Under the pieces are notes generated by a model that saw only the letters and a program-made list of their open reading frames with translations, was not told where the DNA came from and ran no database searches. DNA of 64,000 nt from NCBI GenBank assembly GCA_029856045.1, contig JAHQWG010000035.1:1-64000 (forward strand), in the 5' to 3' direction. The position numbers and the translations under genes were made by a program. Source of the stretch: Promethearchaeia archaeon (GTDB lineage: Archaea > Asgardarchaeota > Lokiarchaeia > Sigyniarchaeales > SOKP01). This document shows positions 57,294 to 57,533 of the stretch, piece after piece (position 1 is the stretch's first letter; each line of letters opens with the position of its first letter).

Positions 57294-57327
57294 GTTTTTT
57301 TATTTTTTTCCTGTTTTTTTATTTTTA

Positions 57328-57397
57328 TTGGTTTTAACCCATGCAAGGGCAGTTATATCTAATCTATTTTTTTTATTAGATATTCATCCTAAACCAA
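57328..57397 (-). promoter_or_regulatory. Candidate SECIS-like hairpin overlapping the vhuU stop codon
   Basis: mRNA reads AUGA-AUAUCUAAU-[AAAAAAAAUAG]-AUUAGAUAU-AA, a perfect 9-bp stem with an A-rich loop; outer UUGGUUU/AAACCAA pairing. Confidence 0.55.
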
Positions 57398-57533
57398 CAT
57401 TTAATTCACGTGAGTAAATTTCTTTACCGTCCTCATTCACTACGGTGATGTGGGCGGCACACGATAGTCAACAATCATAACATCGGACTATCATTTCTAA
57501 GAGATTTACCACTCCTTCAGGAATATCTTCCAT
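57384..57533 (-). CDS. vhuU: Selenoprotein VhuU, the small C-terminal subunit of the split [NiFeSe] hydrogenase
   Basis: MEDIPEGVVNLLEMIVRCYDC-U-LSCAAHITVVNEDGKEIYSRELNVGLG*; in-frame TGA at 57468-57470 lies at the first Cys of the DPCxxCxxH motif. Confidence 0.92.

Follow-up and report, generated by a model that had tools for sequence, protein, structure and literature searches.

A conserved mRNA hairpin under synonymous-site selection just 3′ of the selenocysteine codon of Asgard vhuU

The short selenoprotein gene vhuU of an Asgard archaeon carries, 8 nt after its selenocysteine (Sec) codon, an mRNA hairpin that is a genuine cis-acting structure, maintained by selection on synonymous sites in two distant lineages. 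An earlier note, made from the sequence alone, had proposed a UGA-proximal recoding signal that acts as well as, or instead of, a 3′ SECIS. A conserved and selected stem-loop does exist at this place; of the two forms of the proposal, ‘as well as’ is the best supported and ‘instead of’ is refuted. We see an even chance that the hairpin acts as a helper by making termination at the UGA less efficient, in a manner similar to Sec redefinition elements (SREs) and to type II readthrough signals, and is not the insertion signal itself.

SREs are gene-specific, non-essential stem-loops that lie a few nt after Sec UGAs and enhance recoding (PMC5727441). Type II readthrough signals, found in alphaviruses and several plant viruses, combine UGA-CUA or UGA-CGG with a stem 7-9 nt after the stop codon; the stem increases readthrough by a factor of about 3 to 14 that varies with the virus and the assay (PMC3159437). 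For the pseudoknot of MuLV, which is also 8 nt from the stop codon, action at the unwinding site of the entrance channel has been proposed (PMC3159437). In mammalian genes, UGA-CUAG is a weak-termination context (bioRxiv 10.1101/2021.04.18.440353). Archaeal Sec decoding has been tied only to the SECIS in the UTR, and no UGA context requirement was found in M. maripaludis (PMC9622424). Mariotti et al. applied RNAz to VhuU coding sequences with 200 nt on either side and reported the SECIS alone (PMC4989117); Huang et al. 2024 described eukaryote-like SECIS elements in Asgard archaea, with SREs, hairpins and stem-loops near the UGA unmentioned (PMC11227280). A full-text literature search for ‘Sec redefinition element’ together with archaea returned none described in Archaea.

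The vhuU gene

The window is the whole 64,000-nt stretch of DNA that was analysed. The features of the vhuU coding region are as follows.

57384..57533, minus strand: vhuU coding sequence, 49 codons and a stop codon, MEDIPEGVVNLLEMIVRCYDC-U-LSCAAHITVVNEDGKEIYSRELNVGLG and then the stop
57468..57470, minus strand: Sec UGA (in-frame TGA) of vhuU, aligned with the first Cys of DPCxxCxxH
57465..57467, minus strand: CUA (Leu), immediately 3′ of the Sec UGA, a rare Leu codon here (9%)
57486..57494, minus strand: 5′ strand of an upstream 9-bp helix, AUGAUAGUC, codons -8 to -6
57461..57469, minus strand: 3′ strand of the upstream 9-bp helix, GACUAUCGU, the G and A of the Sec UGA and then CUA UCG U
57425..57459, minus strand: UGA-proximal hairpin, 13 bp, with two 1x1 internal loops, a bulged A and a 4-nt loop
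57403..57420, minus strand: weak third coding hairpin, AAUUUAC-UCAC-GUGAAUU, doubtful

The product of vhuU is the separately encoded C-terminal piece of the large subunit of a [NiFeSe] hydrogenase. The gene is flanked upstream by vhuG and vhuA and downstream by hdrC and hdrB. Although the mechanical open reading frame opens at GTG 57545, translation probably starts at ATG 57533, which matches the initial Met of the orthologs. The C-terminal motif of NiFe hydrogenases, DPCxxCxxH, reads D-C-U-L-S-C-A-A-H in the vhuU of the window. The same reading (57476-57468 in the window) is found in nearly all Asgard vhuU genes, with Cys replacing the usual hydrogenase Pro; a few Asgard lineages have D-P-U or D-N-U in this metal-binding motif.

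Within the class to which the window belongs, vhuU is present in 134 of 161 genomes, nearly all with a single in-frame TGA, and we retrieved 125 Sec-type loci for analysis. We refer to the window’s own vhuU family as f1 (107 unique members in the codon-resampling test described below), to a GC-richer Asgard family outside this class as f31 (30 unique Sec-type genes) and to other families of the class as f3-f7 (18 Sec-type genes). In one f1 member (L094, G056:C49), an in-frame TAA interrupts the part of vhuU that carries the hairpin (CAAHITVVDE-stop-GT), the mark of either a pseudogene or an error in the assembly. A single 175-nt Logan contig, from an RNA-seq library and belonging to a relative, covers the stretch from the SECIS to the Sec UGA; it is mute on expression level, transcript ends and structure.

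A hairpin 8 nt after the Sec codon

The mRNA segment that had drawn attention to this site (reverse complement of 57426-57458) occurs exactly as quoted in the earlier note, with 20 of its 33 nt being G or C compared with 29.6% GC in the window, and folding confirms the pairing described for it (-11.1 kcal/mol). An extra U-A pair lengthens the hairpin to 57459..57425 and brings it to -12.1 kcal/mol. In codon terms, it runs from the third base of Cys+3 through Ala-Ala-His-Ile-Thr-Val-Val-Asn-Glu-Asp-Gly to the first base of Lys. A spacer of 8 nt (CUAUCGUG) separates the UGA from the first paired base; counted to the first G of the stem as originally described, it is 9 nt.

Relative to dinucleotide shuffles, the fold of 57426-57458 has a z of -2.24 (7 of 200 shuffles are equally good); an 81-nt context that takes in the hairpin and the adjacent upstream helix folds at -24.9 kcal/mol (z -3.9), with none of 200 shuffles as good. 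The mean stability of the hairpin across the 107 f1 members is modest (-9.5 kcal/mol), and 87% of f1 cells are paired in the structure originally described. Spacer lengths were taken from consensus stems, as those obtained from minimum-free-energy folds of the downstream 54 nt alone are noisy because weak outer pairs form. A search of 4 kb against Rfam (E<=10) returned chance miRNA/snoRNA matches only.

Constraint on synonymous sites

The observation that the hairpin uses G/C-ending codons against the local bias is correct: they account for 7 of the 11 hairpin codons compared with 15 of 49 in the whole gene. Within their synonymous sets in the open reading frames of the window, the codons concerned are minority choices (GCC 8%, CAC 19%, ATC 13%, ACC 11%, GTG 11%, GAG 25% and GAC 11%). 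We used a codon-resampling test in which the same peptide was encoded with synonymous codons drawn from local or genome codon usage and then refolded. Against such codon-shuffled controls, which the earlier note had named as a check, the hairpin of the window stands out clearly (z = -5.0): not one of 1000 recodings reached its stability. The 107 unique f1 members have a mean z of -3.37; 94% lie below -1 and 87% below -2. The same test on vhuA, used as a control, gave a mean of means of -0.12 (sd 0.42, minimum -1.27) over 102 aligned windows from 12 genomes. Codon usage in vhuA equals genome usage, and the C-ending codons of the hairpin are therefore local and not expression-linked.

The codon choices follow the structure position by position. 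Stem codons shun the A-ending codons that the genome favours (GCA in 4/49 and 1/49, GGA in 1/49 and ATA in 3/48) and prefer CAC (42/49), ATC (38/48) and GAG (37/49); these preferred codons provide bases that match partners whose identity is dictated by first and second codon positions. In the loop, codon usage at Thr+8 and Val+9 follows the background (KL 0.01 and 0.08, respectively). At four-fold sites of vhuA, divergence between genera has reached saturation (median identity 0.41 versus 0.37 expected), and the stem codon pattern therefore reflects constraint and not inertia. Synonymous-site analysis of this kind reveals functional RNA in very short selenoprotein genes that standard screens have overlooked.

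Covarying pairs in two families

The earlier note had made its proposal hinge on conserved and covarying pairing among Sec-type orthologs, and such pairing is present in both f1 and f31. In f1, the register of the apical pair shifts with the identity of residue +11. In 72 of 74 Asp-type sequences, the G of GAY lies opposite the third base of the Ile codon (C or U); Asn- and Lys-type sequences lack this G, and there the Ile base lies opposite the third base of Val10, as C-G (10), A-U (9) or U-A (6). On a tree built without the three apical-pair columns, these columns underwent at least 15, 19 and 12 changes (at least 46 in total), and 103 of 106 tips are still paired. Independent-pair sign tests on the apical pair are concordant in direction and, with too few supported pairs, give p >= 0.125 and no tree-corrected significance.

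In the second family, RNAalifold finds a hairpin at the corresponding position, composed of different base pairs, with a solid stem that begins 6 nt after the UGA. The codon-resampling profile of f31 is two-peaked as in f1, with maxima before the UGA (z -2.2/-1.6) and at codons +3/+4 (z -1.7/-2.2), and all f31 sequences are below -1 at codon +4. Where the Ala codon GCC has become the Gly codon GGC, the partner, which is the third base of a downstream Gly codon, switches accordingly (C-G in 7 sequences, G-C in 11 and G-U in 12, with none broken).

A lokiSECIS that begins at the stop codon

The idea that the hairpin stands in for a 3′ SECIS is refuted by a canonical, strongly covarying lokiSECIS at 57387-57353, which begins at the stop codon of vhuU. 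Its parts are as follows.

57326..57399, minus strand: lokiSECIS domain, a three-way junction
57399-57391/57334-57326, minus strand: lower helix, 5′ strand formed by the Val-Gly-Leu codons, GUUGGY/RCCAAY
57387-57384, minus strand: AUGA, containing the stop UGA (57386-57384)
57383-57375/57363-57355, minus strand: 9-bp stem, AUAUCUAAU / AUUAGAUAU
57374-57364, minus strand: loop AAAAAAAAUAG, 11 nt, A-rich, ending in AG
57354-57353, minus strand: AA
57350-57337, minus strand: third arm, GCCC-UUGCAU-GGGU, after the AA

The published definition of the lokiSECIS comprises AUGA, a 9-bp stem, an 11-nt loop (A’s first, G last) and then GA, or AA in VhuU (PMC4989117), and the element at 57387-57353 has all of these features. 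In VhuU.1, the AUGA is known to double as the stop codon (Mariotti et al. 2016, PMC4989117). The SECIS thus overlaps both the coding sequence and the stop codon of vhuU, at a distance of 83 nt from the UGA. Compensatory changes occur at 7 of the 8 stem pairs scored in 50 f1 members, and the lower helix covaries as well (UA 30 and CG 17 at one pair; UA 46 and AU 4 at another). The data set is therefore able to show covariation where a real structure exists. The published descriptions consulted cover only the AUGA/9-bp/11-nt hairpin (PMC4989117); the lower helix and the third arm go beyond them.

The CUA codon and an upstream helix

The Sec UGA is followed by CUA in 102 of 107 f1 members and 27 of 30 f31 members, compared with 3 of 24 in the other Sec-type families and none of 6 Cys-type genes. 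UGA-CUA and the hairpin are combined only in f1 and f31.

CUA also takes part in the upstream 9-bp helix, which ends 1 nt ahead of the hairpin. In 50 f1 members, 97.8% of the cells of this helix are paired and third positions are limited to pair-compatible bases; its mean codon-resampling z in f1 is -2.72, and the pair probabilities in the window are 0.9-1.0. It is absent from the Cys-type genes L052 and L213. The helix accounts for part of the choice of CUA, AUA, GUY and UCR codons in f1, and it must be melted by the translating ribosome before the UGA is reached.

Downstream, the doubtful third coding hairpin (57403..57420) is 87% paired, with a mean z of -1.9 versus -0.12 in the controls and a mean energy of -2.4 kcal/mol; it shows no covariation in the family. 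It would explain preferences for TAC (43/49) and CGN codons.

Families without the hairpin and Cys-type genes

The link between the hairpin and Sec is imperfect, as there are Sec-type families without a hairpin and Cys-type genes with one. The 18 Sec-type genes of f3-f7 have no consistent hairpin at this place (mean z -0.2 to -0.9), f9 shows almost no hairpin signal and in f21 (loci L270-L272) the codon-resampling peak is displaced to +6/+7. The hairpin is therefore not required for Sec decoding. Strong codon-resampling signals also follow the Sec UGA in L048/L049 and in L231-L234, in one group at +9 to +11 with z down to -7. These offset signals, like that of f21, may represent alternative downstream structures or parts of the SECIS domain.

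Stand-alone vhuU genes of the Cys type are rare (one in f1, one in f31, four from metagenomes that represent three lineages, and one from f4), so that the Cys-type control comprises six lineages only. Three of the four Cys-type genes that belong with f1 and f31 have no hairpin: L052 (z ~0), L213 (z +1.8/+1.4) and L266 (z +0.8/+0.9). L213 lies at about positions 401-700 of metagenome contig SDBV01067372.1 and is a TGC vhuU that closely resembles f1. Its lokiSECIS hairpin and third arm after the stop codon look intact, and the CUA, the upstream helix and the GCC, CAC and GAG codons are gone. The retention of a recognisable SECIS marks it as an apparent, fairly recent Sec-to-Cys convert. L216, another Cys-type gene, still has a hairpin in this position (z -2.8 to -3.8). 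L225/L226, also of the Cys type, have a strong hairpin that begins at the Cys codon.

Among the 19 Sec UGAs of the window’s genome, only that of vhuU has clear downstream structure, and one other, an hdrA site, is borderline; the vhuU site (S = -5.0) is at the 0.6th percentile.

Comparison with known recoding signals

The hairpin resembles an SRE in being a stem-loop within the open reading frame, a few nt 3′ of a Sec UGA; the spacer is 6 nt in SEPN1 and 8 nt in vhuU (PMC5727441, PMC3159437). Like SREs, it shows conservation with synonymous-site constraint and compensatory change (in f1 and f31, but not in f3-f7 or f9), it accompanies a 3′ SECIS in a subset of selenoprotein genes only, as do the SREs of SEPN1 and SELENOP (SRE1), and it is non-essential, with hairpin-less vhuU orthologs still encoding Sec. 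It differs in being archaeal, shorter and weaker (13 bp with mismatches and about -10 to -12 kcal/mol, compared with the 16-bp stem of SEPN1) and in not being universal among orthologs; moreover, its stimulation of Sec insertion is putative.

With the type II signals, vhuU shares the hexanucleotide UGA-CUA and the position of the stem, which starts 7-9 nt after the stop codon in the viruses and 8 nt after it in f1 (6 nt for the solid stem of f31). The viral signals, too, were found through peaks of synonymous conservation and compensatory changes (PMC3159437). Viral stems, however, enclose long loops (about 100 nt), whereas the vhuU hairpin is compact, at 35 nt with a 4-nt loop, and the viral signals act through readthrough by near-cognate tRNAs on eukaryotic ribosomes, whereas vhuU would involve a SECIS-delivered Sec-tRNA on an archaeal ribosome.

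The bacterial SECIS is likewise a coding-region stem-loop right 3′ of the UGA, but it is the sole essential signal and has specific loop bases that are bound by the C-terminal domain of SelB; the free positions of the vhuU loop are unconstrained and the gene has a separate SECIS. Unlike the lokiSECIS, the UGA-proximal hairpin lies inside the coding sequence and lacks the 5′ AUGA core, the 9-bp stem and the 11-nt A-rich loop. We considered a K-turn or SECIS-like core within the hairpin and rejected it: the AUGA of its 3′ arm is on the wrong strand and lacks tandem G.A geometry. This AUGA is there because the coding sequence demands it (AAU/GAU-GAG).

Possible roles of the hairpin

The analysis establishes the structure and its maintenance by selection, and shows that the hairpin has a fixed position, occurs together with CUA, is specific to this gene and is accompanied by a SECIS. 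It is plausible that the hairpin raises Sec insertion over termination. Because the link between hairpin and Sec is imperfect, a role alongside the SECIS is something that we infer. In such a role, the ordinary lokiSECIS downstream would remain the essential signal and supply the Sec-tRNA. While the UGA occupies the ribosomal A site, a spacer of 8 nt would leave the foot of the stem at the entrance channel for the mRNA. A stable stem there, combined with UGA-CUA as a context of weak termination, could then slow the ribosome or hinder the release factor, and the delay at the UGA would give more time to the Sec-tRNA complex recruited by the SECIS.

The hairpin might instead be part of a general mRNA architecture that is unrelated to Sec, as one module of a vhuU cistron folded almost end to end, which could stabilise the 3′ end of the transcript or control the rate of translation or the coupling to vhuA. 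We regard this as rather unlikely, although structure signals do occur upstream of the UGA and further downstream, and both the strong hairpins of some Cys-type genes (L216 and L225/L226) and the several Sec-type families without a hairpin would suit it. A stability element would be expected to show neither a fixed 8-nt spacer nor an association with CUA; three of the four Cys-type genes from hairpin families have z values around or above zero throughout this region, and vhuA, in the same operon, has no comparable window. A further role would be in the service of the SECIS, with the hairpin compacting or insulating the 80 nt that separate the Sec codon from the SECIS core. This could draw the SECIS complex close to the A site, protect the SECIS through ribosome spacing or keep the GC-rich CAAH codons from mispairing with the SECIS; the very short distance from UGA to SECIS, the overlap of the SECIS with the coding sequence and stop codon, and the restriction of the hairpin to vhuU among the Sec genes of this genome are in line with it. 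We nevertheless consider it improbable, as the hairpin is missing from other families with equal gene length and a stop-overlapping SECIS, and the predicted SECIS stem probability is 0.839 for native sequences versus 0.833 with the hairpin recoded (15 sequences). An insulator finds no support here, the SECIS stem probability being unaffected by recoding.

The position of the hairpin, just 3′ of the UGA and within the coding sequence, would suit a SECIS of the bacterial type or a substitute insertion signal to which the Sec elongation factor binds, the stronger form of the earlier proposal. Such a role is most unlikely in the presence of a canonical, strongly covarying lokiSECIS: third positions of the loop drift freely at background usage, the hairpin has no match in Rfam at E<=10 and many Sec-type orthologs do without it. 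Archaeal SelB, moreover, has a short C-terminal extension that is unrelated to the SECIS-binding one of bacteria, and it left its cognate SECIS unbound in vitro (PMC8211752). Chance, or a compositional artefact of the conserved C-A-A-H...E-D-G peptide, deserves mention since the codons for Ala, Gly, His and Asp are by nature richer in G and C and the dinucleotide-shuffle z is only -2.2; we give it almost no credence, as it is refuted by the same-peptide nulls, the operon control, the site-specific exclusion of codons, the covariation and the independent second family.

Termination and Sec insertion in Asgard archaea

If the hairpin is such a helper of Sec decoding, Asgard archaea may use a eukaryote-style two-part signal in at least one selenoprotein, with a kink-turn-type 3′ SECIS and a UGA-CUA/stem module that antagonises termination; we advance this only tentatively. 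A UGA-proximal module of this kind is otherwise known only from the SREs of eukaryotic selenoproteins and from the readthrough sites of eukaryotic viruses. Archaeal aRF1 and eukaryotic eRF1 are homologous. Were the two-part reading true, the sensitivity of aRF1/eRF1-type termination to the UGA-CUA context and to structure at the entrance channel would predate eukaryotes. The UGA-proximal hairpin and UGA-CUA, present in a Loki-type and another Asgard lineage, would be a second eukaryote-like feature of Asgard recoding. Together, the hairpin and CUA offer a compact element for studying the competition between termination and Sec insertion on archaeal ribosomes.

The only other Sec UGA of the 19 with an unusual codon-resampling value downstream is that of an hdrA gene (G000 contig C46, open reading frame start 82916, Sec residue 34), with a minimum z of -4.1, at the 1.4th percentile of the background.
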